Shown here: positions 1,411 to 30,146 of the stretch, piece after piece
How positions within the stretch are numbered: the stretch's first letter is position 1
How the letters are laid out: each line of letters begins with the position of its first letter
Source of the DNA: Curvularia clavata
Taxonomy: Eukaryota
Length of the DNA stretch: 64,000 bases
Direction: 5' to 3'
Assembly (NCBI GenBank): GCA_023920165.1
Contig: CP089279.1
Location: 1-64,000, forward strand
Program-made: the position numbers and the translations under genes
Notes under the pieces: model-generated
The model's database searches: none
The model's input: only the letters and a program-made list of their open reading frames with translations
Told to the model about the DNA's origin: nothing

Positions 1411-3855
1411 CTAATATTATTAGAAAGTTAGATAGCTTCCTCTATAGGCTCGTCCAAGTCTCTATCAAGACTCTCCATCTTATTAGAATTCGCAAATTTA
1501 AGAATTATGAGTTGTCGAATCTTTTTAGCAGAAAGCCGATATCGACGATCGCTAATAACTTCCTTAGCAATACTAAAGACTCTCTCTACACCTACTTGCG
1601 CAATTAGTATAGCTAGAATATCTTTTACAACTTAGATAAGATGGGGGTACGTGATCTTACTTACTTTCTACCACTCTAAGATATCGATATATTCCCGTAG
1701 ATCAATACTAGGGCTACTTAGATATAGCTCCCCTTCTTAATAGGTTGGCCCTCTACTCTCCTTAATTTCCTAGCTTGAAGAATCTTAGCTTGAAAGAGAA
1801 ATCTAGCTTGATTATAATCGAAGTAAAGTAGGCCTTCAAAACTATTCTGTGCTTGATACCCTCCGAGGAAATGAGCTTAGTATTAACTGTATAATTTCTT
1901 GATTATTATATCGAGCTAGATAATCAAGAAACTGCTGCTAGTAGATATGCTTATCTTGAAACTCCCATATCTTATTCTATATCTTCTATTAGTATCTATC
2001 TGTGATAAATATCTGTAATAATACCTCGTAGGCTATAAGCTTTTGCGTTAGATCAAGAATCGTCGCGCAGTTGAATAAGAAGCCACGCTCTTTATTAGTT
2101 TTCGAGTAGTATTTACTCAACTTTGCCCTCTCTTTCGCCGCCGCAGCTCTTACTACTTGTGGCCAGTTGCTATTCTCTGAGTCTTCTTCTAAATCAACCT
2201 CCATCTAATCAAGAAAATTAAAAAGCTGATTATACATGAGCTAGATATATAGTATTTAAAGTTTTTAACTCTGACTTAGAGACATTGTTGCAGTCTTAAA
2301 ATGGCTAAGCATTTCAGTAACCATCTCAAGATGCGACCATTCTTGTGCAGATAGTCGTAGTCTCTTAAGATCCTGAGAATCAATATCAGTATTGTTGTCG
2401 GCCTCTGAGAGGTTTTCGGTATGGATAGGAACCCTTAACGCGATCTCATCTTTGAGCCATTTATTGATATATTGCCGAAACTTGACTGCGCGCTTACACA
2501 TATTATATGTCGAGTTCCATCGTATTCTAACATCACAGATAACACTAAGGCGTTTTTTTGGTGGTAGATCCCGTTGTGTTGCGAGAAACCGTTCGTATCG
2601 CTGAGGAGATGAGTCAACTATAATGCAGATTGCTCTAATCTATATTGTAGTTAGTATGTGATAAATAACTGTGATAAAAAATTCTTCCCTTACAAAGTGA
2701 ATTAGGGACTGAGATGTTGGCATCTACTTTATTAATCTGTTGTCTCTGCAAATCTTGTATATTATCTAACTCGGTAGAAGCTAACAGCCTTAAGTGCTGG
2801 ATAATATCCTGGACAACGAGGTTGATAATATAGACTAAGCAGGGAATAGTGTTTTTACTTGGACTCTAGCTTATACTAAGTTGTTGTAGACCTTGCTGAA
2901 GAGACTGCGTAAGAGTGCTATTATTACTGGCATTATCGCAAGTAATGGATAGCAATTTTTTTTGGAGTTCACTTCTAGAAAGAAGTTTTAGAACTTCATC
3001 TACTATTAAAGCTCTAGTATGTCTCCTATAGATCAGTATAAAATCTAAAAGTTTTTCTTTGAGTTGCTATTAAGTATTGATATAGTAACCTTTGATTACA
3101 AGGAAACTAAGATGGTTACTTGAAGCCTAACTATCTAATGCAAGTGATATTTTTGTTCCTTAGCCAAGATCATTAAGAAGCTCAGCTGAAGCCTTCTTAA
3201 ATTGTAACTTAAACGCTAGCTTGAATTTATAACGGCTAATAATTACAGCGTTGGGCTAGAGAAACTAGAGAAATCGTTGAAATGATGGCCGCTCAAGTGT
3301 TCGGAAGCTCTAGTAGTTATCAACTACTACTCTTACTAGTTCTTGTTCGTATGTCTTAGTTGAGTAGGCTGGTATTGCGCGAGGATTAATATTTATTGGT
3401 GGTGGGATACTTTGGCGGAGTGAGTTCGATAGCTTGTTGTATATAGGCGAAGAGATAAGCTGGCAAGTTTAGATTTAACGATATCTATAAAGATGCTTTA
3501 TACTAATATTTCCAGCTGATAGGTGCGCGAGTATATAACTGCAGTTCGAGCAGAAGATATATAGACGGCCAGTTAGGATCTCTACAGCCTTTCCAAAGTT
3601 TGCCCAGATTTGGCTCGTACGACAAGAAGAGCCCTAGTGTGGAACTGGCTTCGAAGGATCTCGGGCTTATGGTGTTTTATTCCACTACTCCTTCTAGTTT
3701 GAAATAATTGCTTTGTTCTCTTCATTGCTATTATTTTCAAGTACTGGATACTGGATGAGTGTAAGTGTGACTTTAAGACCACCTTTGTCTCGGTGTGGAG
3801 CATTTATCTTGAGATGCGCAAGGATATCTGGCGGTTCTGTAGAAGGCTTAGCCAT
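1411..3855 (-). pseudogene. hAT transposase, RIP-inactivated, at least 2 introns (about 1977-2024 and 2640-2693)
   Basis: Start MAKPSTEPP; BED-like IFCSNC..KHL; KISLALD, ITCDNASNN, RWNSTYNMCKRA; C-terminal dimerisation-type domain DILEW..YPHL..KDILAI..VGVERVFS..RYRLS. 3' end approximate. Confidence 0.9.
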
Positions 3856-4152: not shown

Positions 4153-5861
4153 CTACTTAGACTTCTCTTCTTCAGCCTCTTCGTCTTGATCCTCAGCCTC
4201 CTCTATCTTAGCACTATCAGCCCCCTCTGGAGCCAAAAAGCTATCGTTACTACTATAGCCATCCTCATTCTCGTCTATAATCTTATCCTCGTTATTAACC
4301 TCTTCTTCATACTCGTTACTATCATAGCCTTCGATATATGGCTTATTATCCTTAAGACGCGTATCTGGATCAAACTGGTTGAGAATAGAAGTAGGCTTTT
4401 CTTGTCTATACTAGTTAGTTCTTGAATGTGATAATAAACTGTGATAAACTTACTGCTAGGAACTATCTATAGCAAGTTCTTTTTTTTTGGGAGAAAGGTT
4501 CTTGTAAAACTTGAGCTATTTATCTCGTGCTTGCTCGCTCTTAAAGGCGTTGTTGTTTAGCTTAGCCAATTCTCGAAGATATTCTTTGCGTATAAGTGAG
4601 TTAATAACCCCCTTTCGACTATAGAGACGAGCAGAAACGCGTAACCTCTTAGTAGAGGTATTAGACGGGGCGTCGCTAGAGGTAGTCTGGAGAATAAGCT
4701 GATGCCGTCTTTTGTCGATCTCATTCTGGATCTTGGACCATTTCGCGTGCACAGCTTGGAGAGCAAACGCCATCCAATTAGCTAATAACTGTTAGTAGAT
4801 GTCTGTAATAAAAGACTGTGATAACTTACTATTTTGCTTTTCTTTAAAGCGCTTAGATTCATGCTCTTTAAGATGGCTCTTTATAATTCTATTCTTCTTA
4901 TCCTCTCTGGCGGTCTTATACTATTCTTTCTCTTTGAGTGACTTAAGAAATTTCGCCCGAGCAGCGCGGTCAGCATCTTTGGCGCGTTAGAGAGCGGCTT
5001 CTTCCTTGGTACGTGACGCGGCGAGATCTCTCTGTGCAATAGCTCGAGCTGTGTTACTAAGCTGACCTTGATATTGGATTCGCAGACCAGTTGGACAACT
5101 CTTTTAGGAACCTCTATGTTACAAGTAACAAAGAAGGATCTCTCCTTGACGATGGCCGCAGGTAGGAGACCATTGGGCGACACGTCAGAAGGTAATGATC
5201 CCCGCGGAAGGGCGATCACATGACTGGCCTCAGGCCAAGACCGGGAAACCACGCTAGTATGTGAGGACACGCTCACACGTGACCAAAGTGACTTCAGGGA
5301 CTTCAGAGAACACAGGGGTTATTCCGTGAGGACAGTGAGGACAGGACCGGAAGCAATGGGTATAAGAATGTGTTGGATTTCATTATTACACTCGTTGTGG
5401 TCAACTCAGCAAAGTATCTTTCATAGTTACCTTTCATACTCAGATTGATACTAGTTATTCTATCTTCCAATAGGATTGGTTTTGTCTATCTTCCGTTAAT
5501 CCCTACCACCGAATCGCCAGACAACTACCTCACGGTATACTTCATAGAAACTGGCCTCGCCCTAACCCGGAATCTAGGCTAGGTAAGTATATTCCCAACT
5601 AACCAGTAGGACCCCGTGTAACACTCTAGATCCACGTTGCGTAATGATAAAATTGATTTTGTTTTGCTTATTTTTAAAGCCTTACTAACGTTAGTATTTA
5701 CTATGATAATAGACTGGGATTATTATTTTAGTAAGATCTGCCTACTTCTGCTTAGTAAAGTCCTTGGGTATTTGGGCAACGCGTGGAGGTGCTAGACCCT
5801 TAGATACGTTGCCATCAGCCTCTATCGTAGACTCGCGCTTGATTTCTGGCGTGCGCGGCAT
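4153..5861 (-). pseudogene. hAT accessory gene of unknown function (basic/coiled middle, acidic C-terminal tail), split by a solo LTR
   Basis: MPRTPEIKRES start; frame continues across the LTR insertion; introns 4782-4829 and 4406-4453 with GTAAGT/CTAAC/TAG; ends ..EEAEDQDEEAEEEKSK*. Confidence 0.65.
5117..5623 (+). mobile_element. Solo LTR (507 bp) nested in the hAT element
   Basis: TGTTACA...TGTAACA termini; 5-bp TSD CTCTA on both sides; related to the LTR fragment at 48259-48406. Confidence 0.9.
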
Positions 5862-6385
5862 TATTGACTATGATAAAGTACTGATATAACGTCTAGTATG
5901 GTGGGGGTAGGGAGGGGGGGGATAGTTGCTAAGAGAGAGTAGGAAGTTTGGTGATAGTCTACCTATTAAGGTAATTAGGGGTCCGTGCGCTCTGGATTTC
6001 GCGCTAGCGTTGGGCTAGCGAACAACATCTTTCATACAGCCAATATCTTGGATAATAAAAGTTAGAGTGCTTTAATTTTAGTCTTATTTGAAAGCCCTGG
6101 AGTAGCTCTATCTAATAAGCCAGTTATTATAGTATTTAATTACTGCTTCGTTGAGTTATGGCGATTTCTTACTAACTATCTCGCAGACCTTTAGCAAGAC
6201 TCTGGGTGATCTGTGCACTCACCTTTACCTTTATCTTTACCTACTTATATATCCCCAAAATTCTTAACTACTCTATAGCTAAGTATTTGTCCACCAATTC
6301 TCTTAATCTAAATCTAACTTTCCTAGCCTAACGCCAAATTTCTCAACTCAACCCTACTAGTTATTACAGAGATTTATCACGTACT

Positions 6386-7354
6386 ATGTTAGCAGTAGAC
6401 GAGGTGGGGGGGCCAGACGATGAGTCGTTTGAGGAGATGGTAGAACGGTTAAATGTGCTCCCATCGCCTGAAAGACAGGTGTCTTAGCTGCTGTCACCTC
6501 GCGAATTAGAAGCTCTTGAAGACGAATTTGAGGTTTTGGGAGCTTAGATGACTGGCAATCCTACTTTTTCTGCCGAAGGTGGCCAACTAAATCCGTAAGT
6601 TTATTATAGTAATTTATTATAGGAAATGGCTAATAAATGCTAGGACTACTACTTACGATTATCCCTCTCCGCCCCGTATCTTGACTAGTGGCTATCTTGT
6701 ATCTTTTGCGTACGTTTATCACGGTAATTTATTACAAGTAATAGCTAACTAATAGTAGGACTAGCACTATGTTCTATAGTGTAGGTGGCAAAACCGCTCG
6801 TAAGCAGCCAGTTAATTATAGGCCGCCCACGCCTAAGCCCGATAATGAGGATTAAGAGTCGGAAAGCAGCGAGGAAGACGAGTCCGGCCCTCCTACACCG
6901 CCTGGTGCTCAACTATCTACGTCTGGCGCCTCTAAGAGGCGTAGGTTTAAGTCTGGTAGTAAGTTTATTATAGTTATTTATTACAGTAAGCGACTAATAA
7001 TTACTAGCTATTATACTAAAAGAGATTAAAAGATTCTAGAAGTCTACTGATCTGCTTATTCTAAGGACTCGATTTGTAAAACTTGTTAGAGAGATTATGG
7101 GAGACGTATATCCGCAACACCCTCTATATATCTAGAGAGAGGCGTTGGAAGGTCTTTAAGAGGCTGCTGAGTATTTTTTGGTTAGATTTCTTGAGGGTAT
7201 GTTATATTATTACAGATATTAATTATAGCTGCTAACGGATCTAGACTGTAATATGAACGCTATCTATGCTAAGAGAGTTACTATTTAGAAGAAGGATGGG
7301 GATCTTGTTAAGCACTATCTTAATAGGCTTGGTATGGGTGGTATTAAGTACTGA
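6386..7354 (+). pseudogene. Histone H3-like (H3/CenH3 fold) gene inside the hAT element, 4 introns, RIP stops
   Basis: Spliced translation KRRRFKSGTIILKEIKRF*KSTDLLILRTRFVKLVREIMGD..EALEGL*EAAEYFLVRFLEDCNMNAIYAKRVTI*KKD aligns by eye to the H3 fold; tail GGKTARKQ; introns 6595-6643, 6710-about 6758, 6959-7007, 7197-7244. Confidence 0.9.
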
Positions 7355-14919: not shown

Positions 14920-15078
14920 TCTGGTTGAGTATAAGGCTTGAAGTAGGAGTAAGCTGGTAAAAAATGGTTATATGAGATTCTGAACGTAGCTGCATATTAA
15001 ATGCTGCATCCACTATTTATATTGTTTTAATGTGTTCGTTCTTTAATATAGGCGCTCTTATATTTACAATAGAGTGAT

Positions 15079-15230
15079 AGCTTTCATATTCACAGCTCTT
15101 ATATTCACAGCTCTCATATTCACAGCTCTCATATTTACAGCTCTCATATTCACAGCTCTCATATTCACAGCTCTCATATTCACAGCTCTTATATTCACAG
15201 CTCTCATATTCACAGCTCTCATATTCACAG
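15079..15230. repeat. 15-bp minisatellite (CTCATATTCACAGCT)n, about 10 copies
   Basis: Direct tandem array; variants are C>T only. Confidence 0.95.
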
Positions 15231-15775
15231 GGGAGCAGATGCTCTCTCCCTACAAAGCCTCAGACCTAAAAGGCTGACTCAGCTGTTATCTGCGCCACCT
15301 TTTGCTATGTTTCGCTATCTTTGCTCTCTGTTTCTCTTTGTTTTTGCTGCCAGGCTGTAGGCTGGAAAAACTCATTAAGTAGCGCTCTGATTGCCGTTCA
15401 AGTCTTTTTGCCTGATTTTCTGCTGTAATTAGCTCTATCTCTATGGTGTATTACCAAGACATCATCTGTACTTAGCTCAGTCAGTGTCTGCTATCTTTGT
15501 TTACTTAAGTAGATCGCTGTCGGTTACTATCTTCCTCTCTGTGCTACTTATACTGCGTGAAGTCGGCCTTATATGCACGTATGTATATATATTAGGAATA
15601 GATCCTATATTTAAATACTTTTTTTGACATGTTCCGGTGGCTAAAAATCTTTGATATTTAGGTATATACTAGAATATAATTCGCACTTTCTAATGCTATT
15701 CTTATTTTCTTCTAATGCTTATTATAGTACAAGAAATTGGTGAGTTCTTTACATAGCGATTCACTATAATATAAC

Positions 15776-15984
15776 TGTTAGACTGTTAGTGGCGTGAAGG
15801 TACAGCACGAGATAGATGAGAGAGAACTATGCTTTAACAGCCATGTATTCACGAGACGAATCGCTATCGAGCACCTCTAGCGATCGTGGAGGCTTTATAG
15901 CCTTAGGTAAGCCCTAGCTGACTAACTAGCGTGAAGAAGGAGGGAATTGGACCAACATGTCCCAATTTGGACCAGGTCCTGACA
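15776..15984 (-). repeat. 3' LTR of the chromovirus
   Basis: Direct repeat of 22897-23105; preceded on the minus strand by AAGAAGGGAGGTAT. Confidence 0.97.
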
Positions 15985-16577
15985 ATACCTCCCTTCTTAG
16001 GGTGCAGCTGTCCCAGCTGCGCAACTTATCATGCTTGCCGCCCAGTTTGAGCGATTACTGGGTGATGCCGCCGTGTGGGTTGGAGGGTGTATTTTACTTG
16101 CTCACCGCCCCAGGGCTATGACGTCATAATAGCGGAGTTTTGCGCTGCTGCCTAGCCGACTGCCCCACTTTGGGCCAACCCGGCCCATCAGGGTACTCCT
16201 GGGCAGCGCCAAGAGTCACGTGACGCGCTAATTTAGTGCGGATCCAGGGATACAATAGCCAGTTTTTGACTAAGCCCAGTACACCCCACAGTCCACCAAC
16301 CCCACTTTGGTAAGTAGACTCCCATTTTGTGGGTCTTCTCAGTTTGGGCCCGACACCTTCCACCCACGGTCTGTTTGCAACAGTTTGGCCCAATTTGGGC
16401 CAGTTTGCAGTCGACCTTGGTTTTGTTGCCTTTTTCTGAGGTTCTTCCCCTGGACTTGGAGTTTTCTGCTGACTTTTCTTTTTAGGCTGTTTCCTCCCAT
16501 ACGATCCATTTCGCGACAGATTCGACCGATTCGTCCCAAACACCCCCAAATTGGGGCCTTCAAGACCCACTTGAACC

Positions 16578-17643
16578 ATGACGAACGCACTTGGATCCGT
16601 CAACCGCAGTACGGTGTCAAACCTGTTCGTACGCAAGGGCCAGAGGTCTTACTACGCTTGTGTGTGCTGTCTGAACGCCTTCAGGGATAATGAGCCCGTT
16701 ACTTTTGGCAGAGCGGGTTGCGTTATGTTGGACATCGACAATCCTGAGGTAGCTGAGGCTTGGTCTGGCTACAAGGTTGAACCGGAGTCTGGCGGTATGC
16801 CTAGGCAGGTGATGAAGTGTCTTCGCTGCTCTTACATCAACCGTGTCTGTTTTGCGGTAAGTTGCCCTGTTTTGCTCTGATTTGGTCCAATTTGGAGCTA
16901 AATGAGTGGTTAGGTGCCTCCTCCCGACAAGTTCTCCCCCGACTGGGTGAGACTTGGCCAGCTCATTGGGAAGGTTGAGGATGCCTTCCATGCCATTGAC
17001 AAAGATATCCCCGAGGGTGCCAATGAGGCTGAAGTTCGTGCTGAGCGCAGGGAAATGTACGAGGTGGCCGTTACTAGGCTTAGTATGTTCAGCAAGCCTA
17101 TTGTTGAGTCACTCAAGAAGTAAGTGATCCAATTTTCCTAAATCTGGCCCAAATTGGACTAATTTGTGTAGGTTTGAGCCTCATGCTACTCATCTGTCTC
17201 TTTCCTCTGGTGCCATCGAGGAGGAAGATGATCCCCGCTCTGGTGTGAAGACTTCTGCCCTTGGCCGCTCCAAGAAGGATGAAGAGGTCAAGAGGAAGGC
17301 TCATGAGATCGAGGTGGAAACTTTGGTCGAGGCAAGGGTCAAGAAGTCCAAGTATGGCTCTGGTGGGCGCAAGAAGGAGGTTTGTGATCCTTTTCCCCCC
17401 TATTTACGCCAAATTGCCCCAATTTGGACTAACTTGGTTCTTTAGGTCAAGGTTGCCGAGGATGTCACTGATGAGCTTCAGAAGCGCATCAATGACATTG
17501 ATGAAGAGATTTTGCAAAAAATGTCTGAGAAGGAGGGGGCCAAGGGTCAAGCCAAGAGGAAGATCACCAATGACATCAAGAACTTGGAAAAAGCCAAGGC
17601 AAGGCTTAACAAGGAGTACGAGGCCGCAGTTGCCGGTGATTAA
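16578..17643 (+). CDS. Antisense accessory gene within the chromovirus, 4 exons, 296 aa, Cys-rich N-terminus and charged coiled-coil C-terminus
   Basis: Exons 16578-16856, 16914-17119, 17172-17379, 17446-17643 join into one open frame; introns are GT..AG with CTAA(C/T/A) branch sites; CVCC..C..CLRC..C motif. Confidence 0.85.
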
Positions 17644-17931
17644 GGGTGGTTGGGTCTAGTTTTGTCCGTTTTGGCCCAAATTGGGTCAGTATGGGCTATG
17701 GTGGTTTTCTTCCCTTTCATATGAGATACCCAGGGCATTAGGATGGAGGTGATAATTGAAATTCTCTTTTCTTTACTTTTCCATTCCTTGGTTTTTGTTG
17801 TGCAATGTCAGTTCAACATGGACCAATTTGGGCCAGGTTGCCCTAATCAGCTTATGCCGTTAAACACCTATAAAACCCTTTGGGGAAAAAAGTAGGTGAA
17901 GGTACATGTGCTAATTTGGCTCCTATTGGCC

Positions 17932-20900
17932 CTATTTGGCCCGTTTTGGCCCGCGTCTGCGTCGAGGGACCTGATTTGATTTGTTCCAGAACTCTTGAAG
18001 CGTTTTCTGGGTAACATTGGCGGCTGGCTCCCATGTGTTTTCAGAGTCGGGGTATCCAGTCCATTTCACTAAGTATTCCCACTGATCGTCCTTGTTCTTC
18101 CTATGTCCCACTATTTTGTCCACGAGGTAGACATCGTCGCCTGTCTCGCCTAGTTCGTGTTGTGTTGGGACTTCAGGATGTGGTATATCACCTGGGGGGT
18201 GATACTGCTCTAGTAAGGATGCATGGAACACTGGGTGTACGTTTTTTAGGCCAGGCATATCTACTTTAAATGCTGATGGGCCGATTTGCTCAGTTATTGT
18301 GCCTGGGCCAACGTATTTCCAGTCGATCTTCTTCTTTGGTCGCAGGGATTTAATATGCTTATTAGATAGCAGTACTTTATCCCCTACCTTAAAAGGAATG
18401 GGTTGTCTTTTCTTATCTGCGTGCCGTTTTTGGTACTCTTGCGCTTTTAGAATATTGTTCTTGCACTCTTGTTGTATTTCGATTATTCTTGAGGCAGTAC
18501 TTGCCGCTAGGGGGTTTTCGCCCCCAGTTTGGGCGTCTTTGGGCCATTCTGCGCCTCTTGGGTGTATGCCGTTGCATGCTTGGAAGGGGGTGACCTTGGT
18601 AGTCGAATGTACACTGTCATTGTACGCGTATTCCCCTACTGAGATCCATAATGCCCAGTCGTCCTGCTCTAGGGAACAGTAGCAGCGGAGGTACTGTTCT
18701 AGAGTCTGATTTTGGCGTTCAGTCTGGCCATCTGTTTGTGGGTGGTATGCCGAAGTAAGTACACGTTTCGAGTTAAGGTAGTGAAGAAAGGTCTTCCAAT
18801 GGGTGGAGTTCATTAAAGGGCCTCTATCTGATATGATTCGGCGTGGTACGCCATGGAGACGGATTACTTCGCGCAACCATGCCTGAGCTAGGTCTACTCC
18901 GTCCCAATTGGACCGTGCTGGCACGTAATGGGCCATTTTGGTCAGTCTGTCGACTATCACGAGGATTGCGTCGTATACTACGCCTTGCAGTTTGCTTGGT
19001 GGCAATTCAGTTATAAAGTCCATTGTTACTTCCTCCCAGGCTCTATTGGGTGGTGGTAATGGTGCAAGGGGCCCGTATGGCAGGTGCCGTTTCGGGGTAG
19101 ATTTTTGACAGATAAGGCATGATTTGCAGTAGTCTTCCACGTCTTTCCTCATGCCAGCCCACTTGTAGTGGCGCGTTAGTTTCTCTAATGTGCGTCTTGC
19201 GCCAAAATGTCCAGAAAGCGGGTCGTCGTGACCTTGTTTTAATGCTGCTGCTTTTTCCTGTGCCGTCTTGGGCACGGTTGGGCCAGAGTGGCCCTGTTTG
19301 AGCCTTTGTGGACTTGGTTTGGCCACGTCGTCTTCTTCTGAGCTACATGAGTCCGAAGTGTATTCGTCCGTCTCTGAGTCGGCCTCTTGAGCCAATGCTG
19401 CATGCCTCTGGTCTTCATGTTGCTTCGCTGCTGTATTCTGCCGTCCTTGTGATCGTGTGGTGGTAGCTGCAGCTATAGCAGTCCCTTCGGCATTGAATTT
19501 GAGCAGATGGCGTAGCGATGGCACATATGCGCTATTATTCTTCTGCTTTGGCTCTTGGGCGGCTTTTATGTAGTCGGGTCTGCGCGATGGGCCGTCGGCG
19601 GGGTTTGTTTTCCCAGGTTGGTGTACAATTGTGAAATCAAAACCTGATAGGGCTAAGTAAGACCGTACCTGGCGGTGATTCAGTGTTTTGGTTTCCATGA
19701 ACCACTTCAGGTTTCGATAGTCAGTAATTAGATCAAAGTGTATCCCATCAAGATATCTTCGCCAGTGTTGGAGACTAGCGACGATAGCTAGTAGCTCTTG
19801 GTCATGCGTGTCATAGTTGTACTCCGCGGCGATTAATTTGCGCGAGTAGAAGTCTACGGGTCTCCAGCAAGCCTCTTTGGGCACGTACTGGCTTAGGATG
19901 CCAGCAATCGCTCCTCCCGACGCATCGACCTGTACTCTAGTCTGATTGTCTGGATTAAAGTGGGTTAGGATAGGTACTGCCGTAAAGGAGTTTTTTAGCG
20001 TCTTAAACGCGCTCTTGGCGTTTTCGTCTAGAATTAGCAGTACGCTTTCCTCTTTTCGCTGAGCTTTGCCCCCTTTGGCGGCGTTCGGCTCCTTTTTCAG
20101 TAACTCAGTTAAAGGCAGTGCGATTCTGGAGAAGTTAGCAATGAATCGACGATAGTAGTTCATGAAGCCTAGAAACACGCGGACATCGCGCACTGTACGC
20201 GGTTCTGGCCATTCTTGGGCCGTTTTGGCCCGATCTGGGTCGATACTTATACCCTCGGGGCTAACTGTGTAGCCAAGGAACTCAGTGTGTTGGGTGTGCC
20301 ATTCACACTTCGAAGTCTTCAAATACAGCTTGGCTTCGCGCAATCTGTTTAAGACTTCGCGCACGTGTCTCTCGTGCTCCTCTTCTGTGTTGGAGAACAC
20401 CAGAATATCGTCCAAATACACAATACAACTCACATCTACCAATCCTGCAAGGATATGGTGTATGTACGCCTGAAATTGTGCAGGAGCGTTTGTAAGGCCA
20501 AAAGGCATCACAGTATACTCGAAATGGCCGTATCTGGTGCGGAAGGCTGTCTTCCACTCGTCTCCCTCCTTAATCCTCACCCTATGATATGCTTCTCGGA
20601 CGTCTAGCTTGGTATAGAATTTTGCCTCAGCCAATCTATCCAAGGACTCCGTAATCAAGGGTAAAGGGTGACGGTTTTTGAGCGTTATGTTGTTTAGACC
20701 TCTATAGTCCACACATAACCTCATCGTGCCGTCTTTCTTCTTCGCGAAGAGTATTGGTGCGCCTGCTGGCGACTTCGAATGTCTAATCCACCCTCTCGCG
20801 AGATACTCACGCAAGTAATCCCGGAGTAGCGCTAACTCGCTCTTCGAGAGCCCATATAGCGGCTGATGTGGTGGCGTGGTGCCTTCTTTCAAGGTTATCA

Positions 20901-21584
20901 CCAAATCGTGCGGGCCATGCTCAGCAAGGCACTTGGCATCCTCTTCCGAGGCCAAATCCGCAAAGTCCTCGTACTGTGGTGGCAACTGAGGCAACTTGGC
21001 TTGATCAGGGCCAACCTGGGCGTTCTTGGGCTTCTCCAACCCCTCCCAGTCCTCTTCCTCGTCGCTTGGGTCCCAACCCATCACAGTGGACACTTTGAGC
21101 GCGTAAACGTCCGTCGTGGGCGTTCGGAGTGTTTTCTCAAACTCTTCGGCGCTTTCTGTCGCGATTTTCTCATATGAAGCCCTATCTACATATTTCACGC
21201 CCCTAAATAGCACTCGACGCGACCGGAGGCTTATTTTGGGCTTGTAGAAGTCGACCCAGGCATACCTAAGCATACTGGGTAATGCTTCATTTCTGTCACC
21301 ACAAAAGGTATATTCTGGAATTTAGTCCTCCCTCTTGTGTCTGTGACTTTCATGGTCACCTCTGTAGTGCCATAAATCTCAAACTCCGCGCCGCTTAAGG
21401 CTTCTGCCACTAAGTTCGGTATAGGAGTTATTGTTAAATCGTGATCCTTGGCTTGGTGGATTGAGAGTAGATTTAGTTGAGACCCTCCATCTATCAGCGC
21501 TTCGAGTGGATCTTGGCCAATTTGCACCGTTATGGTCAATAGTGGGCTAGGTTTGCTGAACATTGCTTCGCGAAGTGTCTTCAA
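17932..21584 (-). CDS. pol: Pol polyprotein (protease, RT, RNase H, integrase, chromodomain); one-base frameshift near 21259
   Basis: ALIDGGS protease; YLDD RT; VDASG RNase H; HHCC integrase zinc finger; YLVKWTGYPDSENTWEP chromodomain. Protease frame is -1 relative to gag. Confidence 0.95.
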
Positions 21585-21631
21585 GTCCTCTTCTAGCTCT
21601 AGCCTTGCAATATGGGCGGAGAGTAGGGCTA

Positions 21632-22864
21632 CTAGGTTCTCCGCCCCTTGCCTTTTTCCAGTTTGGGTTCCTCAGGTGCCGCTTGGCTTTGTTTGTGCTT
21701 ACTACAGTTCCTGCTGATGTGTCCGGGTTCCCCGCAGTTGTAACAGACAATTTTGCCCTCTGCGTCGCGTCCTCGAACCTTGTTTGCCGCGTATGAACCT
21801 TTTGTATCCGCAGGGTTCCGTCTTTGTTTTTTCAGGGTTTTTTCGTACCCTCTTGTGTTCTTTGGTGGTGTGCCGCTCCTGGCTTGCTTGTTCTGCGTTG
21901 TTCTAGCGTTGCTAGGCTTCTCTCTTTTCGTTCTGTCCCAGATAAGTCGCGCTCGCGCGTTTAGGTCTGAGATTGTGCTTCTTTGACCTGGTTCGAGTAA
22001 AAGCAACTCTTTCTGTATTGTCATTGTCAAAGCGCCCATAAAGTCCCTCACTCTCTGCTCTTCCGAGTAGGCATTGCCCAATTCGGACCAAAGTGTGTCC
22101 AATTTGGCCAACAGGTCGTTTGGGTCCTGAGACCAGTCCTGTCTGATGTGTTTGAGAGCTCGGTGGGCTTCAAGCTTCCGCTGTTCTGGTGGTCCCAGTG
22201 AATCCACCATTACAGTCTTCAGGTCTAGCCACGTGGGTGTCCAATTCGTGTCTTTTCTACAGTAGTCGTGATAATAGGCGTCCCATGTGGAGCGTAGGGG
22301 GTCAGTGATATACCTAAGCCCAAAATCGATCTTGACTGCCTCTGTTTGGAACGTTTTAGGGCTTCCCCTAAACGTTGCCTCACATTCGCGTTCCCAGCGA
22401 TTGTACTCGGCACGATCGCGGCTTGTGAACTGTGTTGGTTTTTCTGGTCGTGGAGCTCCCACGTTTGGTTCTAGTTGTATCCCCACCGCACGGTGTGGTT
22501 CATATAGGTCCTCTGTCAGTGCTGTCGTGTCACCTTGGTCGAACCGACGCTTGATTTCCTGGAGACGTTTCAGTTCTTGCTCGTCAAGCGCTCGTTGCCT
22601 CCAAGCGCGCAGTTCGTCTAGCTGTTGAGCAATGGTGGTCTGAGGTGGTTCAAGTCGAGCTGGGCTGCCCTGAATTGGGCTTCTCTGTGCCAGTTCGGCC
22701 TGATCTGCCTCCGTGACGGCAGGCTCGGATAGTTCACTTGAAGATGGCTGGGTTGAGTCTCTAGTTAGAGTGGGCTGTGAGTCCCCTACTACCGTGTTTC
22801 GAGTTGACCTTGGGCGGCTCCGAGTTTGGCGACTACCTGGGTTCGGCATGGCTCTCTCTGACAT
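21632..22864 (-). CDS. gag: Gag (410 aa) with CCHC zinc knuckle
   Basis: Intact ORF right after the 5' LTR; CYNCGEPGHISRNC. Confidence 0.95.
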   Translation of the reverse strand: MSERAMPNPGSRQTRSRPRSTRNTVVGDSQPTLTRDSTQPSSSELSEPAVTEADQAELAQRSPIQGSPARLEPPQTTIAQQLDELRAWRQRALDEQELKRLQEIKRRFDQGDTTALTEDLYEPHRAVGIQLEPNVGAPRPEKPTQFTSRDRAEYNRWERECEATFRGSPKTFQTEAVKIDFGLRYITDPLRSTWDAYYHDYCRKDTNWTPTWLDLKTVMVDSLGPPEQRKLEAHRALKHIRQDWSQDPNDLLAKLDTLWSELGNAYSEEQRVRDFMGALTMTIQKELLLLEPGQRSTISDLNARARLIWDRTKREKPSNARTTQNKQARSGTPPKNTRGYEKTLKKQRRNPADTKGSYAANKVRGRDAEGKIVCYNCGEPGHISRNCSKHKQSQAAPEEPKLEKGKGRRT

Positions 22865-22896
22865 CTCGTAGGTGTACTTGAGGAGAGCGATTCGAA

Positions 22897-23105
22897 TGTT
22901 AGACTGTTAGTGGCGTGAAGGTACAGCACGAGATAGATGAGAGAGAACTATGCTTTAACAGCCATGTATTCACGAGACGAATCGCTATCGAGCACCTCTA
23001 GCGATCGTGGAGGCTTTATAGCCTTAGGTAAGCCCTAGCTGACTAACTAGCGTGAAGAAGGAGGGAATTGGACCAACATGTCCCAATTTGGACCAGGTCC
23101 TGACA
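22897..23105 (-). repeat. 5' LTR of the chromovirus
   Basis: Direct repeat of 15776-15984; TATAAA on the minus strand at 23015-23020. Confidence 0.97.
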
Positions 23106-23444
23106 ATAACTAGATTGACTAGAAGTAACTTGAAACATCGCGCTGATAAGCTTGTTTAGGGCCTTTGAAGCCGCTTGTTAGAGCTTGCTAGGCAGAAATA
23201 GAGCTTAACGTAGGGGCTGGGGATTAAGAGTGAGGGTATCTTCCTATTAACTGCTGTTTCGCCTTGCAAGAGTCTATATAATTACAAGAATAGACAGTAA
23301 GGTCTTATAGCGTAGAAGATCTAATCTAAATTATAGATATAAGTATACTATAAGAGTTATTGACAAAGATATATTTATATTACTTTGTTACTTTATCTAG
23401 TTATTAAAATAAATTCTGTTAGAGTCTTAACGCCATTATACTTC

Positions 23445-23715
23445 TGTAATCATGCATAGACTAAGACCTACCCTAGATAAGACGGCTTATTGAGATCCGA
23501 CTAAGAGCCGGGACAGATCCGATGAAGGCCCGCACTTAGGTATAAGTACCAGGTACCTTCTATAGATGTTTGGTAGATTTTTGATATTCTTTCGTACTAG
23601 GCCTATGAGTGTCTACCGAATCTAAGGTATTTCTATTGTCCCACGCACTTCTATATGTATTTGAGTGACACTTCCTACCGGAATAGATTCGACTAGTCTT
23701 GCTCGTGCCGTTACA
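23445..23715. mobile_element. Solo LTR (271 bp)
   Basis: TGTAA..TTACA termini; TSD ACTTC; inverted homolog at 47962-48230. Confidence 0.9.
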
Positions 23716-24411
23716 ACTTCTGCTCAATATTCTACTCTCGACGGTGCTATTTACTACTATCTACTACTACTTGGCAGAATTTTAGTAGAATAATGGTACA
23801 GCACGAGATAAATGAGAGAGAATTGTGCGTTAACAGCCGTGTATTCACTAGACGAATTCCTACCCTATACTAGTTTAGGTGATTTATGCAGACTTGTATC
23901 AATTTTCTGCAATTTAATACTATTTTATGCAAATGATGACTGTACTACTACTTAGTATTTTTTACTATAGTACGCGGAAATTTTCTACTGTTTACTGCTA
24001 TTTACAACTATTAGTCTTACAATACTAGAGTACGAGAGAGATTTTCTGACTTGAAGAACTATGCACCCGCAAGTCAGAACTCCGACAGAGTATAGGAACT
24101 ATGTGCATCAATATTATATACATATTTGCCCCTTTAAGAATCCTAGTTAAATAGATCGACTATGCAGGAAAGTATGGTAGAGTGGATTGGCGGTTCTGGT
24201 GGTAGTTCAAGTATTGAGTATGCTAAACTGGGCTATTTACATCGATTGCAAGACTATTGCATTGTTTTTGTCTTATGTACGATCTAGTTAGTAAAACGTC
24301 TATCTTGACTATCTAAGCAAACCTTTTGTTGCTTAATTTAGCTACCTCTCTTACATGTTCTCAACTCCTCAGCCCTACTGTCCGATTGATCGCAGTCTTA
24401 ACAGACTAGTC

Positions 24412-27400
24412 CTAGGCGTTGGTTCCACTTGAGCTCGTAGTAAACATGCCCTGTGACTGTTGAGACCAATCGACATTATCGCTTTCATCATTACCGCTAA
24501 CACCTTCGTGGCTAACACCTTCGTGGCTATCACCGCTAACGCCTTCGTGCTCAATCTCCTCCAACTGGTCCGCAGGGTCAAAAGAAATCGCAGCCTTGTT
24601 GTTGATGGTAGAGTGAAACTTATTGAGTATGTCCTGCATGGGGAAACCGTCTATCTGCTACTGCTTGACTGTTTTGGGGCGGTGCTGCAGATTAATAAAA
24701 GTCTTGTTTCTATTGCACTAGACAATGGCTCCGTAGTAGGCAGACTCGCGATACCGATAGCGATTCTTGCCGGTGTAGTGAGCGCTGACAGCGTCGTGGT
24801 CGCCAATCATGATGAGCAGCGAGCGCGCGCGGCCATTGGCAAGAAGTTGACGAGCGTTGTCGCGTGTGAAGCCGAGATCGCCGGCGACCGTAGTGTAGTA
24901 GATGATAATATCCTTCTAGACACTCTGCATCTTGTCTACTATAAAGTATTCTACCTTGGGGATCCAGGAGGCGACGCGATATATGAGTGAGCTCTTTTCC
25001 TGCTGTAGACACTACTTGGCGATGGCGTGCTGGGTAAAACGATATGCGCCGACCTAGGTAGTGTATGTGGAGATGATGGCAATTTGCGACGCTTCGAAAC
25101 CCTTATCTAGTAGACGGAGGACGATCTTCCATACGGGACCTACGAAGCTGTCGTTGTAGCGGGACTTGGAAGATGGCAGGCTTCTATCTTTACTAGGCAG
25201 GCTTATAAAGATCACTCGCTTGGGTGCTTTAAACAACTTGTTGGCGCACGCAGAAGCCAGCTGGTTAGCTTGCCAGTCATCTACACCGGGGGCGACACTC
25301 ATTTGACTACGGGGAATTATAGAATTGATGAAATCGTTAATATCACTGTTGGACTGATGCTATTTCTGGAGCCAAACAGTATTATAACTAACGTTGACTA
25401 GACGCGAGAATAGGGGGACCGTAGTCTACTCTCTAAAAGAGTGAGACTGAGCGCTACGACTAAGAAGGGGCTCGGGCTGGTAAATGTCTCTAAAGAGTAC
25501 ATGAGGGATGTGAGTGTTGGGAAGTATACTTATAGGCCTAGCGCCCACAGTGTATGGGCGACTGAACACAAGAGCGGCAAGACTACCGTACTCTAGCGTC
25601 TTCCCAGCCTCATCGTGTAGGACAGCGCTGGGCTGGCCAAGCTGGTGGGCACGAGTCTGGGACACCACGTCCGGTGTTATATAGATGCCGTTGGCCATGG
25701 TCGCAAGATCCGCTACAATCTGGTTTGCCAACAGGGTCAGTCGCGTCATCCGATCACTATCGAAGGCGTCACCCTGTGACAGAAATACAAGAAGTTCCTG
25801 GAACTCCGTGTACTTGTCAAGGTCTGCAATTTCGTGCAGTGCCCCATCTGGCTCTAAAACACTAGCGCGACGGAGGATCTAACGCCCCTCAGAGAACTCC
25901 TCGAGTTGGAGACGCTTGTCAAAGTCAGTAGAGTGGTTGCTCGCATATTCGCGCTGGATACGCGTCGCTGCAATTAAAGAGCGGGCGAAGCGCCTCTATT
26001 GCGTCTCTAGTCTGGTCTCCTCGTCCTCTTCCTCGGCGTCGTCATCATCATTATCATTATTGGTATCTTTGGTGTCTTCGGGTAGGCCTTCAAAGTAAGG
26101 AGGTAGTGTCTCGCGTCGGACGTGCATGCGCTGAGCTTCGGCCTCCTTTCTATACACCCGCTTCTCTGTGCTGCCCATGTGTCGTCGAATAAAGATTGGT
26201 GGCGGCGCGTCGATGCCCTCTCTCAACAGATCGCTGCGCTCTTCTTGACATCGGTTGAAAAGCTTGACTGTGATGTCGTCCAGCTGCTTGTTGATAGGTG
26301 ACACGGCCCAGATCGGAGGAGTAAGTCGTTTTGTCTTATCTTGTGCGCGACGTGCCTCCAAGCGGTAATGGAGTGCACTAAGACCAACTAAAATCTCGGA
26401 TTTACCTACTCCACCTGGGCCTTGTACTAGGAGAAGACCTGCGTGGATCTGGCGCAAGGCGGTTAAGACCTGTAACTGCTCTGTACTAAGTCTAGCTGCC
26501 ATATGCTGCAGCTCTTGAGCAACAGCATCCGCCCTGTAGACCTGTGTGAGACTCTCGAAGTAGTCGACCGTCGGTAGGCTTCGCGTGTTGTTTGCCAGTA
26601 ATAGTTGTATCTCTTGGCAAAAGCCCTCTTGGCTAAGGTACATGTGATTGATTGTGTTGATGGCGCGCCTCACTCCAACCGTGGGAACCCGCTCGCGAAT
26701 GTAGTATCTGATGCCAGCTAGGTCTCCTATAGCGTCGCGTAGATCCTTTGAAGATTCGAAGTTCGTAGTGTTGACGATATGAATGCCCTCTTTAAACACA
26801 GGATCTACGACGAAGCTTCTCTGTAGACGTGGGCGGCGGAGGTACCTAGCGTACTTATTGGCATGGGTGTATGGCGTCGCTGTGATGATCTGAAATTGCT
26901 ATAGCTTTTCTTTGGGATCTTCCTAGTCTCTAAAGCACACGTCCAGCGTTGAGCCCTTACGGAAGTGAGTATTAGGGGCGTCATCTTTCGCTGGAGGGAT
27001 GACAATATGCGCGTAGTATAACTGGCTGGCACCAGCTAGAAACGTAGCAATCCGTACTCTGGTAAGCGTGTACCCGGGCCTCTCGATGCTCTCGAGCTCG
27101 TGGATCAGATTCTAGAAGTGTATCGTAATGTACTCCTCTAGGCTTTTGAAGGTGTACAGCTTGCTGATTTTGAAGCCGGCGGGGCGATCCTCTTTTCTTA
27201 TCTGTATGCCAGCCTGGGGATTGACCTTATTTTGGGCCCACCAGCGTAGAATCGGGTTCGCAGAGTGCTCTTGCTCTATAGTGGCCATCACGTCTATTAT
27301 GCGAGACGCTAGAGTATCTATAGTAATGGTAAAGAAATGGATTGTCACCACGTCAGCTCTGGCAAGTATATCCCGAGCCTGATGCAGCTGTGTGGTGAAG

Positions 27401-28497
27401 GGACTAAAGTTGGAGTCCATATATATCGCACGACTAAATAAAGGACGGTTAGTCTCGTCAACTGGGTCTTGGTTGCTGTTGGTGCGCACACGTAGCCGGA
27501 TGTAGAGAAGTTTCATTTCTTCGCAGTAGTGTAGTTGTCTCTAGAAGATCTTAATGTCTTGAGCAGGGACGTGCTTTGCAAGTAGAGCATCGGCGGTCTC
27601 AATCTCTATAACACTACAGTCGACAATATTCCTGTATAGAAATGTGATTGCGGCAGACTTGTGCTCGCGACTACTGCGGGTAGTAGGGGAGTTGAACGAC
27701 CCTTCGAAGTCAAACCCAATTGAAGACGCATGCTGAGGCTGGATGATAGTAACGAGCCTCGTGGTGAGACATTGTGCGTTGTCGTCAGCTGGGAGCCCAC
27801 CTACAGGCGGAGCCAGCTCCTCGTCGCTGGCGGTGGTAGTCTCGGTGTTGATGGGCGCGAACTCCGTCGTGGGCTCTGTTGTGGGCTCTGTCGTGGGCAC
27901 TGTTGTGGGCTCTGTCGTGGGCTCTGTCGTGGGCTCTGTCATGGACTTTGTCGTGGTAGTAACGCCAAGGGACTGAACTCTTATTATGCAATCGTCCACT
28001 AAATGCCCGAGCTGCGAGCAGTTACTACACTTCTTCCTCGTGTAGTTGTCTGTGCCGTGGCTCGTGTCTCCACAAGACCGGCAAGTATGGCGTTGTTGCT
28101 GCTTCTTCGCTTTCACCTTTTCTGGACACTCTCTAGCTATGTGCCCGCGCTCGCCGCAATGCTTACAGAGAGGAGGTATTGGATAGGCAATCTTGAGATG
28201 GCCCTGCTTGAAGCAGTTACTGTAGATAATGGAAGGGCACTGTGACTTGACGTGTCTATACTCGTCGCAGTTCTTGCACTTCTGCATCTTCTTTTTGTTG
28301 GGGCACACGGCTTTCTTGTGACCAAGCTTCTGGCAGATGCCGTACTTGTAGTCCTCAAGATTGGGCTCTCGTAGCTGTCCCAAGGTGATAGAGCTGTCGC
28401 CATGTTCGATTACCGCAACTCCTACCACAAAGCGCCGGTCGGCATGGTGGACCGCCGTGGTGCTGGTTAGATAGTGGTGGACCGCGGAATTAGCCAT
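24412..28497 (-). pseudogene. Zinc-knuckle plus Upf1-like SF1 helicase gene, intronless, RIP stops
   Basis: Fragments at 28497, 27516, 26799, 25749, 25302, 24639 share one frame; about 6-7 CCHC-type knuckles, TTEP repeats, QGPGGVGKS, HDEAG, AIISTY, VDKMQ..KDIII, GFTRDNAR..GRARSLLIMIGD. Confidence 0.85.
27865..27945. repeat. 12-bp coding tandem repeat (TCGTGGGCTCTG; TTEP on minus strand)
   Basis: About 6 tandem units. Confidence 0.9.
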
Positions 28498-30146
28498 ACT
28501 GGCAAGCGGTAGCTGTAAAGGCAGCTAGATTTGCAGTTAGCAAAGCACAACAGCGGTGTTCTGACGAGAAACACATCTGGTATAGAAGTAAGGGCTGGAT
28601 AGAGTGAGTGATGGTTGCGTAAGGACTGAGCGAGGTTGGCCGAGTAAGAGACGCGCGATACTTGCGTTAGAACTAGGTGCGGTCGGTAGCGTAAGGGAAG
28701 AGTGGTGTTGAGTAAGAACTGAAGGCTGGCAGGAGTCAAAGCTGGATGGTCTTGGCGAGCGCTTTTACGAGAGCAAACGCCCGTAATAGTGGCAAATACA
28801 CCAAGCTAGGCGCACAAAAACAGCCGCGGGAGAAGTCGAAACTGATGACTGGCAGTAGAGGAATGATTTAGAATATTGGGGTTTACCCGGCCAGTTCAGT
28901 ACTGGTAGACTGGACACTTGAAGCGACGGAGAAAAGAAAGGTTGGGTTATAGCCGACGTTATTTGTACCATAAGGTGGAGAGGGTAAGAGTAGGCCTTGG
29001 GCAAACAAACGTCCACTCTACGTTCATTTCACGTTAGCTTGATCCACAGGTAAAGGCTATGTAAAGTCCAATCTACAATAGCTCCTCAGCTTCTCGGGCG
29101 AAAGGATAGTGAGAATATCGCTGCTGATATGCGCTATTGTGGCTAATGTGCCCAGTGACGTCGCATCCACCATACTTCAAGTTTCTAAAGAAGACCTATT
29201 TTATCCTTTACATTACAGCATACAGCTCCCATCTTGTACAGGGTCCTCCTCACAAGTACATCCTCTAGTACATCTTAGATCTTAGCGAAGCCTCGTTCTT
29301 AACGCCTATATGCTAGGGTTTCTTAAGTAGCATTTGCGAGCTCTCTAAGTAGAGATACAGTTCCAATGCTATTAATACACGTGTCTGCTATATTAAGAGA
29401 CAAATCAAAGGCATGTTCATAAAAAAATCGCCTCATACCAAGCAGCTTAAGTAGCTCATGCGTAGATTATATGCTAACTCCATAAGTCAGACTATTCTCA
29501 AGCTTACGCCCGTAATGCTAGCAGGCACTCATATTTACTCCTAACGCCAACTATAGACCTTGGTAACTAAGTCTTTCAAACGTCTAGTGTTTAGCCACCA
29601 TTCAACAGCCATATAACGAAATAATAATAGACGGGTCAGCAGCCAAACCAGGCCAAGCTCGTTGAAATCGGTCAAGTCAAGCTGGTGGGATTTACCATGT
29701 ATCCGATTGAGCTGGAGCGTCTGCTTTGACTTAGCTCCATTGCTAGCAACTCTACAAATCACCAGCCATTAGCTTTATATAGCAGCAGTGCACTGCAATT
29801 CGCAGCAAAATACTCCCATCAACTCCGATTAGCAGCAAAACTCCATTTTCCGCCATTTCCCGCAAATAGCAGCTATGCACTGCGATCAGCGGCAAAATAG
29901 TCTGCTCCTATCTCTCGTCTGTTAGGTTAGAGGCAAAACAGCTTCTACTGCTATCTGCTGCATACAATGTACGCCCATTTTCATTCATGCGACACAGGCT
30001 GCTTATTCACAGTGGCCACATTCACTAGTCTAATCATGTGATCATACATACTAACAATGAAATTTGCCCCCCACCCATTTGCAGCAATTAGCCACGATTC
30101 ACAACACATCACGTTCAACCCATCGCTCCACAAGTACACCGTCAAC

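Follow-up and report, generated by a model that had tools for sequence, protein, structure and literature searches.

A retroelement copies itself through sense-strand RNA, and long terminal repeat (LTR) retrotransposons are usually described as consisting of gag and pol only. How, then, can such an element carry a further gene that is interrupted by introns? The question is raised by a 64,000-nucleotide stretch of the Curvularia clavata genome (contig CP089279.1, positions 1 to 64,000, hereafter called the window), in which a chromovirus on the - strand holds, between pol and its 3' LTR, an open reading frame (ORF) spliced from four exons of the opposite strand. Because the introns read CT..AC on the sense RNA, they are not removed from it, and the intron-bearing gene can therefore survive repeated retrotransposition. 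This antisense gene is under purifying selection yet changes much faster than pol, and its intron 3, at least, is spliced out in the RNA of a 95–99% similar copy. We have little doubt that the gene is real, selected and borne by the element. Overall, the locus is probably best explained as a genuine accessory gene of a recently inserted, Pleosporales-type fungal chromovirus, coding for what would be a soluble protein acting on nucleic acid or chromatin.

Structure of the antisense gene and of its host element

The gene runs on the + strand from an ATG at 16578-16580 to a TAA at 17641-17643, with a spliced coding sequence of 891 nt, corresponding to 296 amino acids (aa). Its whole length falls between the pol stop (17932-17934) and the 3' LTR (15776-15984), on the strand opposite to gag-pol. 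Its three introns (57, 52 and 66 nt) all have GT..AG ends, with a CTAA branch-like site 9-15 nt before each acceptor. A preliminary description of this DNA, made from the letters alone, had given four exons, three introns and a 296-aa ORF at 16578..17643, antisense in a chromovirus, and its coordinates proved exact; the positions and the LTRs also agree with its statement that the gene is intact and placed between pol and the 3' LTR.

The length of the ORF was compared with chance expectation by first-order Markov simulations of the region, matched in composition and read with the same fungal-type intron rules as the gene model. None of 500 simulations gave an ORF of at least 296 aa (mean 74, maximum 201). 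The antisense ORF is therefore not due to chance. With the same intron rules, the longest ORF on the opposite strand of the gene region was 124 aa, and among 80 other 1.4-kb pieces of the window, taken on both strands, only two reached 296 aa, both of them known ORFs. No second copy of the gene was found in the 64-kb window.

The host element was delimited by domain matches and by inspection of LTRs and target-site duplication, and is a chromovirus of 7,330 bp on the - strand. Pfam domains of pol follow each other in the order RVT_1 (E 5.9e-38), RT_RNaseH, Integrase_H2C2, rve, SH3_Tf2-1 and Chromo, the last one (E 8.1e-17) covering residues 1065-1114 of the 1129-residue protein. Reverse transcriptase, RNase H and integrase thus stand in chromovirus order, with a chromodomain at the integrase C-terminus; direct LTRs with TG..CA ends, a target-site duplication, a polypurine tract and a gag zf-CCHC motif are present as well. 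The direct repeats (15776-15990 and 22897-23111) differ by a sole mismatch, which falls outside the TG..CA ends, so that the true LTRs are 209 bp long and identical at 209/209 bases. The copy is young, with LTRs free of differences, an undamaged target duplication and gag, protease-region and pol frames that are all open; it looks like a very recent insertion and is apparently intact. Its pol is 99% identical to a C. clavata protein annotated as 'retrotransposon nucleocapsid protein', a further relative (P0015) shows 80% pol identity, and its G+C content is about 50%, versus 41-45% in the surrounding region. The gag, protease-region and pol ORFs occupy three different frames, and two -1 frameshifts, in the gag-pro-pol style, would be needed if the element is intact.

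Conservation in sister elements and evidence from RNA

Thirty-six metagenome loci were retrieved with the C-terminal 449 residues of the window pol, and searched by tblastn with the spliced window protein and its relatives. Matches were found in three of them, L001, L002 and L003, whose pol is respectively 72, 71 and 63% identical to that of the window. In each case the match lay 1.1-1.4 kb downstream of pol, on the opposite strand. At the ends where L004 and L006 are cut, a full-length profile further detected the final exon and the final two exons, respectively (E 2.8e-6 to 1.9e-5). Profile matches in L001-L003 and in the window are circular and were left out of the counts. Overall, the gene is present in all five loci where pol is at least 58% identical and the sequence continues for more than 500 nt downstream; the flanks of L005, L007, L011 and L012 are too short for this count. 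The L002 gene is enclosed by two LTRs that are 99% identical, and L001 and L003 are element-length contigs with terminal repeats.

The best-scoring splice models of L001, L002 and L003 encode 296, 297 and 293 aa. Pairwise identity among these proteins and that of the window is only 21-30%. Intron positions are nevertheless identical in all four elements (alignment column 95, phase 0; 201/202, phase 2; 280, phase 0). That four elements, each of which has undergone retrotransposition, retain the three introns without any shift in position or phase fits the earlier proposal that they survive thanks to the antisense orientation of the gene. Upstream of the start codon, a C/T-rich stretch (from 16290 in the window) followed by a GTAAGT/GTGAGT donor is also kept in the four elements, which suggests a non-coding leader exon and an intron in the 5' untranslated region (UTR). 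An RNA contig covering 16400-16629 spans part of this putative intron in unspliced form.

A homologue is also recognisable in two more distant loci, L009 and L010 (pol 46-48%). It was missed by the tblastn and profile searches and found by eye, from the six cysteines that align with those of the family and from following exons of similar character. Compared with the window gene, the homologues of L009 (~2280-3370) and L010 (~5520-6488), on the - strand, seem to have one extra 3' coding exon, making five coding pieces. Over 244 aligned codons of L009 and L010, the proportion of nonsynonymous differences (pN) is 0.109 and that of synonymous differences (pS) 0.678, giving a pN/pS of 0.16; taken one by one, all five coding pieces show a pN much lower than pS. 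In these sister elements the ORF is thus neither absent nor degenerate: it occurs in all five informative loci with a pol identity of at least 58%, and in L009 and L010, and it is constrained. L013 (pol 54%, 1.8-kb spacer) has only a degenerate, cysteine-bearing antisense ORF (profile E 0.95), which was not counted.

Relatives were also found in protein libraries. Exon 1, used as a phmmer query against 1.84 billion (1.84e9) representative proteins with a cut-off of E<=1e-3, gave seven matches, six of which are true relatives (best E 5.6e-23, 47% identity); the remaining one, P0004, is a repeat protein matched in nine stretches and was discarded. Five of the six relatives are ORFs of 92-104 aa that end in ..C-x-A-V and then read into GTAAGT, which in the window is the intron 1 donor. 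Such short proteins are the expected product of an intron-blind gene caller on a gene of this kind. The sixth comes from Alternaria gaisen, where it is annotated as a hypothetical protein of 309 aa; its head has the six cysteines, its middle is variable and its tail is basic and helical. Through a profile search, a further annotated hypothetical protein was found in Stemphylium lycopersici (286 aa). It equals one independently derived four-exon splice model of L001, and its sole difference from the best-scoring model of this locus is the intron 1 acceptor. The Stemphylium annotation therefore provides an independent check of the L001 splice model. As no library protein is identical or close to the window product (best 47%), the gene seems to be unannotated in the public relatives of the element.

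The gene stretch occurs in 20 of 24 listed public sequencing runs, belonging to 15 studies. Four runs were compared in detail: X18 (labelled metatranscriptomic), X10 and X17 (guessed to be RNA) and X2 (DNA). A 260-nt contig of X18 aligns on 17444-17678, and the 25 letters that precede this alignment match 17353-17377 with two mismatches, a placement that is unique in the window. The contig reads exon 3 straight into exon 4 (17379|17446), with intron 3 removed as predicted, GT..AG on the + strand; a spliced junction is thus seen in RNA. X18 and the window differ at 13 positions, all of them C-to-T or G-to-A changes, 10 in a CpA/TpG context. Among the ten changes that fall in coding sequence, five are silent and none makes a stop. 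The DNA run X2 is colinear with, and identical to, the window.

Several observations count against the reading of the locus as an accessory gene with a regulatory product. The X18 contigs are 95-99% similar to the window and so come from a related copy, at a depth of about 4. Splicing is supported by a single junction, that of intron 3, in this related copy, and no spliced contig was found over introns 1 and 2. A small X18 contig skips 16629-16684 (56 nt, GT..AG) within exon 1, after which the frame would end after 18 codons; a further X18 contig covers the same segment unspliced, and the skip may reflect a cryptic or regulated intron, but also a deletion in a related copy or an effect of assembly. 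Contigs of X10 and X17 are patchy, leave intron 3 unspliced and are assignable neither to a strand nor to RNA; they could be sense genomic RNA or DNA. The splice models were chosen by our own score among hundreds to thousands of combinations. Between L009 and L010 the Jukes-Cantor dN/dS is about 0.07, with a saturated dS. When the exons were compared by BLASTP with the two annotated fungal proteins, exons 3 and 4 matched at E 0.003-0.006 only and exon 2 had no match, and the best of 20 wrong-frame controls, at E 0.003, was as good as the exon 3 and 4 matches. Given this weak exon-level similarity, the coding status of exons 2-4 rests on the preserved frames and phases, on the selection seen between L009 and L010, and on the RNA junction. 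As for function, Pfam scans of every exon, of the 13 relatives and of the 309-aa protein from Alternaria yielded nothing above threshold, only sub-threshold hits of coiled-coil type. In AlphaFold, the model of the exon 1 cysteine domain has a moderate predicted local distance difference test score (pLDDT 67.8), and with this model neither Foldseek against PDB (best E 3.1) nor a wide fold search with VIA-align (best Z 2.8) gave a match; a sequence profile search of PDB found nothing below E 1.4.

The product and the associated palindrome

Six cysteines (C28, C31, C48, C81, C84 and C91) and N15 are invariant in all 13 aligned sequences of the family. In the window protein the cysteines are spaced C28-x2-C31-x16-C48-x32-C81-x2-C84-x6-C91. 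The C-terminal half contains 23% lysine plus arginine and 21% aspartate plus glutamate. No hydrophobic segment was found in the 296-aa protein with a 19-residue Kyte-Doolittle window, the maximum mean being 0.69 (0.75-1.11 in four relatives). An env-like ORF lies in sense orientation and has a signal peptide and/or a transmembrane segment; this gene is antisense, and its product has no membrane or signal-like segment. The cysteine cluster and the charged tail mentioned in the preliminary description are therefore real, and so is the lack of a signal or membrane segment, from which it had concluded that the product is not env-like. The coiled coil that it mentions is backed only by sub-threshold Pfam matches of exon 4 to coiled-coil families. 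Its idea of an accessory regulator or anti-silencing factor remains pure conjecture, and no DNA-binding family or fold is assignable with Pfam, PDB, Foldseek or VIA. The Pfam family DUF3716 is not among the six families matched by any of the 13 members at E<=10, and an ESM Atlas search with the Alternaria homologue gave no lead (best feature score 0.76, TM <=0.32).

In the mechanism that we propose, the antisense gene would be transcribed from its own promoter, located in the LTR itself or in the ~590 bp that separate the 3' LTR from the ATG, and its transcript would probably contain the extra intron in the 5' UTR. The product would be a soluble protein of ~33 kDa, whose N-terminal six-cysteine domain may bind zinc and whose basic, helical C-terminal half may bind nucleic acid or chromatin. 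This protein could act on the expression or replication of the element itself, as is supposed for retroviral and plant retrotransposon antisense accessory genes. That it is a nucleic-acid-binding regulator of the element is put forward tentatively, with somewhat less than an even chance.

Inspection of the non-coding sequence revealed a palindrome, CCA-WWW-TGG, usually in the longer form GGCCCA-WWW-TGGGCC. Thirteen copies occur in the window and 11 of them in the element: one per intron, four in the untranslated flanks of the gene, one per LTR, one in pol and one in gag. None is found in the four exons of the gene. The 1,056 non-coding bases of the spacer contain seven copies, versus six elsewhere in the window (Fisher p = 6e-10). 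The intron copies stand directly before the branch-like CTAA, and those of the LTRs lie in the U3 part, upstream of the TATA box. Being intronic, the former are kept on the unspliced genomic RNA and DNA but lost from the spliced mRNA. A variant peculiar to L002 occurs once per intron there, with four of five copies in the spacer, and five of eight variants of L003 are in the spacer; none was found in L001, L009 and L010. The core also differs between elements, being AAWTT in the window and ATWAT in L002.

A conserved non-coding block occupies part of the interval from the pol stop to the antisense gene's 3' end. Its two cores, CCGTTAAACACC and GGTGAAGGTA, are invariant in all four elements (window, L001-L003), and the flank around them is poorly conserved; GGTGAAGGT is placed within this block, at 17895-17903. 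An Rfam scan of 15000-24000 gave no match at E<=0.1. The element might encode a sequence-specific factor together with its sites, the six-cysteine protein recognising GGCCCA-WWW-TGGGCC. We consider this improbable. On the same reading, the motif differences between sister elements and the fast evolution of the protein would reflect lineage-specific self-recognition or an autoregulatory circuit. Positions of all these features are given in Table 1.

Table 1. Coordinates of the antisense gene, of its host element and of associated features (window positions unless a locus is named)
Feature	Position	Strand	Basis or remark
Putative 5'-UTR intron (GTAAGT..CTGAC..TAG)	16310..16485	+	Inferred; acceptor picked by eye
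Exon 1: start codon and six-cysteine domain, 93 aa	16578..16856	+	Splice model, homologues
Intron 1, 57 nt, phase 0	16857..16913	+	Single-ORF relatives read through into GTAAGT here
Exon 2	16914..17119	+	Splice model, sister elements
Intron 2, 52 nt, phase 2	17120..17171	+	Splice model, sister elements
Exon 3: conserved L-x-L-H/S-x-G-A motif, basic	17172..17379	+	Splice model, sister elements
Intron 3, 66 nt, phase 0	17380..17445	+	Removed in a metatranscriptome contig (17379|17446)
Exon 4: K/E-rich helical tail and stop codon	17446..17643	+	Splice model, Pfam scan, sister elements
Target-site duplication GTTAT, 3' side	15771..15775	-	Same 5 bases flank both LTRs
3' LTR, TG..CA, 209 bp	15776..15984	-	Identical to 22897-23105; holds TATAAA and one CCAATTTGG palindrome
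Polypurine tract region, AAGAAGGGAGGTAT in element orientation	15985..15998	-	Read from sequence; adjoins 3' LTR
pol ORF including stop codon (reverse transcriptase, RNase H, integrase, chromodomain)	17932..21321	-	Pfam; stop 17932-17934
Protease-region ORF, third frame	21234..21671	-	Overlaps gag by 36 nt and pol by 87 nt; named from position alone
gag with CCHC zinc knuckle	21635..22864	-	Pfam zf-CCHC
5' LTR	22897..23105	-	Identical to 3' LTR
Target-site duplication GTTAT, 5' side	23106..23110	-	Matches 3' side
Palindrome CCAATTTGG, intron 1	16887..16895		
Palindrome CCAAATTGG, intron 2	17149..17157		
Palindrome CCAATTTGG, intron 3	17419..17427		
Palindrome upstream of start codon	16390..16398		
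Palindrome starts, other flank copies	16546, 17676, 17823		
Palindrome starts, LTRs	15962, 23083		
Palindrome starts, pol and gag	18933 (pol), 22099 (gag)		
Conserved non-coding block, CCGTTAAACACC ... GGTGAAGGTA	17857..17904		Between pol stop and 3' end of antisense gene
Zn2Cys6-spaced antisense ORF, L014	6302-6997	- of locus	Cysteine pattern
Zn2Cys6-spaced antisense ORF, L015	5547-6155	- of locus	Cysteine pattern
Zn2Cys6-spaced antisense ORF, L016	2333-2923	- of locus	Cysteine pattern

The element is surrounded by ordinary genes (MFS transporter, DEAD helicase, FMN reductase) and by other element remnants. About 500 bp outside the 3' LTR, at 15049-15258, there is a tandem array of ~14 copies of the 15-nt unit AGCTCTCATATTCAC. 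On the other side, 670 bp outside the 5' LTR (23776-23862), a stretch of 82-87 nt is 83-84% identical to part of the element LTR and is probably the remnant of a related element. Two ORFs on the - strand (25996-26898 and 27541-28524), which show a helicase-like AAA_11 match and a zinc knuckle of CCHC type, probably belong to another, adjacent mobile element.

Competing explanations

A passenger gene, captured once from a host by an ancestral element and carried since without serving it, would account for part of the observations. LTR elements do capture extra ORFs, for instance in bdelloid rotifers according to excerpts of PMC5408684, and the protein evolves very fast, with 21-30% identity where pol keeps 63-72%. 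The Alternaria gaisen homologue could also be a host copy. However, a useless passenger should decay fast in a retroelement. Here, across lineages with pol identities of 46-72%, the gene has remained intact and has kept its place, its orientation and its exon structure, and it is under purifying selection between two element copies (L009 and L010). Moreover, every relative with known context lies on an element-sized contig or inside an LTR pair. A passenger is therefore very unlikely. The function might otherwise reside in the antisense transcript itself, which would pair with the sense RNA into double-stranded RNA or interfere with transcription, the ORF being incidental. The gene does converge on pol, the two stops being 289 nt apart, its transcript is complementary over its whole length to the 3' part of the genomic RNA, and regulation by double-stranded RNA is named as a possible role of antisense transcription in such elements (PMC7264820, in excerpt). 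Six cysteines invariant across 13 relatives, a pN/pS of 0.16, and a frame and intron phases kept in four elements that are 70-80% different in protein are, however, unexpected of a non-coding RNA. That the transcript alone matters thus appears very improbable, although the two roles are not exclusive.

The cysteines raise another possibility, namely that the product is a strongly diverged Gal4-type Zn(II)2Cys6 transcription factor (PF00172), homologous to antisense ORFs of distant chromoviruses. The pattern of such factors is C-x2-C-x6-C-x5-12-C-x2-C-x6-8-C. Three loci with a pol identity of 37-40% (L014-L016) have, behind pol, an unspliced antisense ORF of 197-232 codons with cysteines spaced C-x2-C-x6-C-x8/9-C-x2-C-x6/7-C, followed by a helical region; a pattern search of L017-L036 found no six-cysteine ORF behind pol. 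The window family shares with Gal4-type factors the number of cysteines, the fungal host, a helical region after them, and the second half of the motif, K-C-x-R-C-x6-C. When the two profiles were compared with hhalign, exactly these 20 columns were aligned (E 0.0019, probability 14%), and the spacing in L009 and L010 is intermediate. Against this, the window spacing, C-x2-C-x16-C-x32-C-x2-C-x6-C, falls outside the Zn2Cys6 pattern, its first half being unfit and only its second half conforming. Pfam Zn_clus matched none of the 13 family members at E<=10, and even the distant loci stayed below its cut-off, with E 0.24 for L014, E 8.1 for L016 and no match at E<=10 for L015. Probabilities obtained with hhalign were low (5.5% and 14%), and no fold match was obtained with Foldseek or VIA. 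On balance, a Gal4-type origin seems unlikely. A genuine accessory gene of the element remains our preferred explanation.

Significance and known systems

This copy is a good experimental entry point, as it is young, has a complete accessory gene with evidence of splicing, and has its conserved residues (the six cysteines and N15) mapped. The relatives span a wide divergence: the family is found in sister elements from several metagenome samples, and two Pleosporales fungi have it predicted in their public annotations. The closest public relative of the element seems to have no annotation for the gene, which bears on fungal annotation since such genes sit inside masked repeats. We know of no function established for the antisense extra genes of LTR retrotransposons in any organism. 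If the protein does control transcription, chromatin state or integration of the element, it would be the first functional handle on this class in fungi; the palindrome of the introns and LTRs could be its own target.

Among retroviruses, HBZ of human T-cell leukaemia virus type 1 is an antisense, spliced gene read from the 3' LTR, and encodes a basic-zipper regulator. The likeness is one of outline: an antisense spliced gene at the 3' end of a retroelement, and a small basic helical protein that could modulate sense expression. HBZ differs in that there is no sequence or domain relation, and no basic-zipper family appeared in Pfam scans of the window family.

The layout itself is already known from brtn and from plant elements. 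In excerpts of four papers (PMC8365987, PMC7264820, PMC4227169, PMC5987419), citing Zhao et al. 2011, brtn is described from the Boty-like chromoviruses of Botrytis and Sclerotinia, as an extra gene in antisense orientation that follows pol and precedes the 3' LTR. As far as these excerpts go, it resembles the gene reported here in its fungal chromovirus host, its place between pol and the 3' LTR, its antisense orientation, its occurrence in full elements with identical LTRs and its unknown function. It differs in its hosts, which are Leotiomycetes rather than of the Pleosporales type, the comparison being one of layout and not of sequence. The name BRTN is absent among the relatives found in the library searches. 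A diagram of full-length LTR retrotransposons, mostly fungal, also marks an 'additional ORF with unknown function' (PMC2864245, in excerpt). Our literature searches yielded no account of the protein family, nor of a comparable gene in Pleosporales, which is not proof of absence.

The plant counterparts are antisense ORFs between pol and the 3' LTR named 'aORF-3R', among them gene23 of maize Grande, and those of rice RIRE2, Silene Retand and Phaseolus PvRetro13. The excerpts of PMC7264820 give their function as unknown and suspect a nuclear, regulatory role, the Grande product being nuclear; according to a reference title listed there, the Grande gene is transcribed from its own promoter. The gene of the window has the features of an antisense additional ORF of this type, being placed between the pol stop and the 3' LTR, on the opposite strand, and conserved among related elements. 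To judge from the same excerpts, position, orientation and conservation within an element family are thus shared, whereas the plant elements belong to non-chromovirus lineages and their proteins are unrelated, with no shared family at Pfam level. Finally, unlike the plant aORF-3R, the gene described here has a coding sequence interrupted by three conserved spliceosomal introns.

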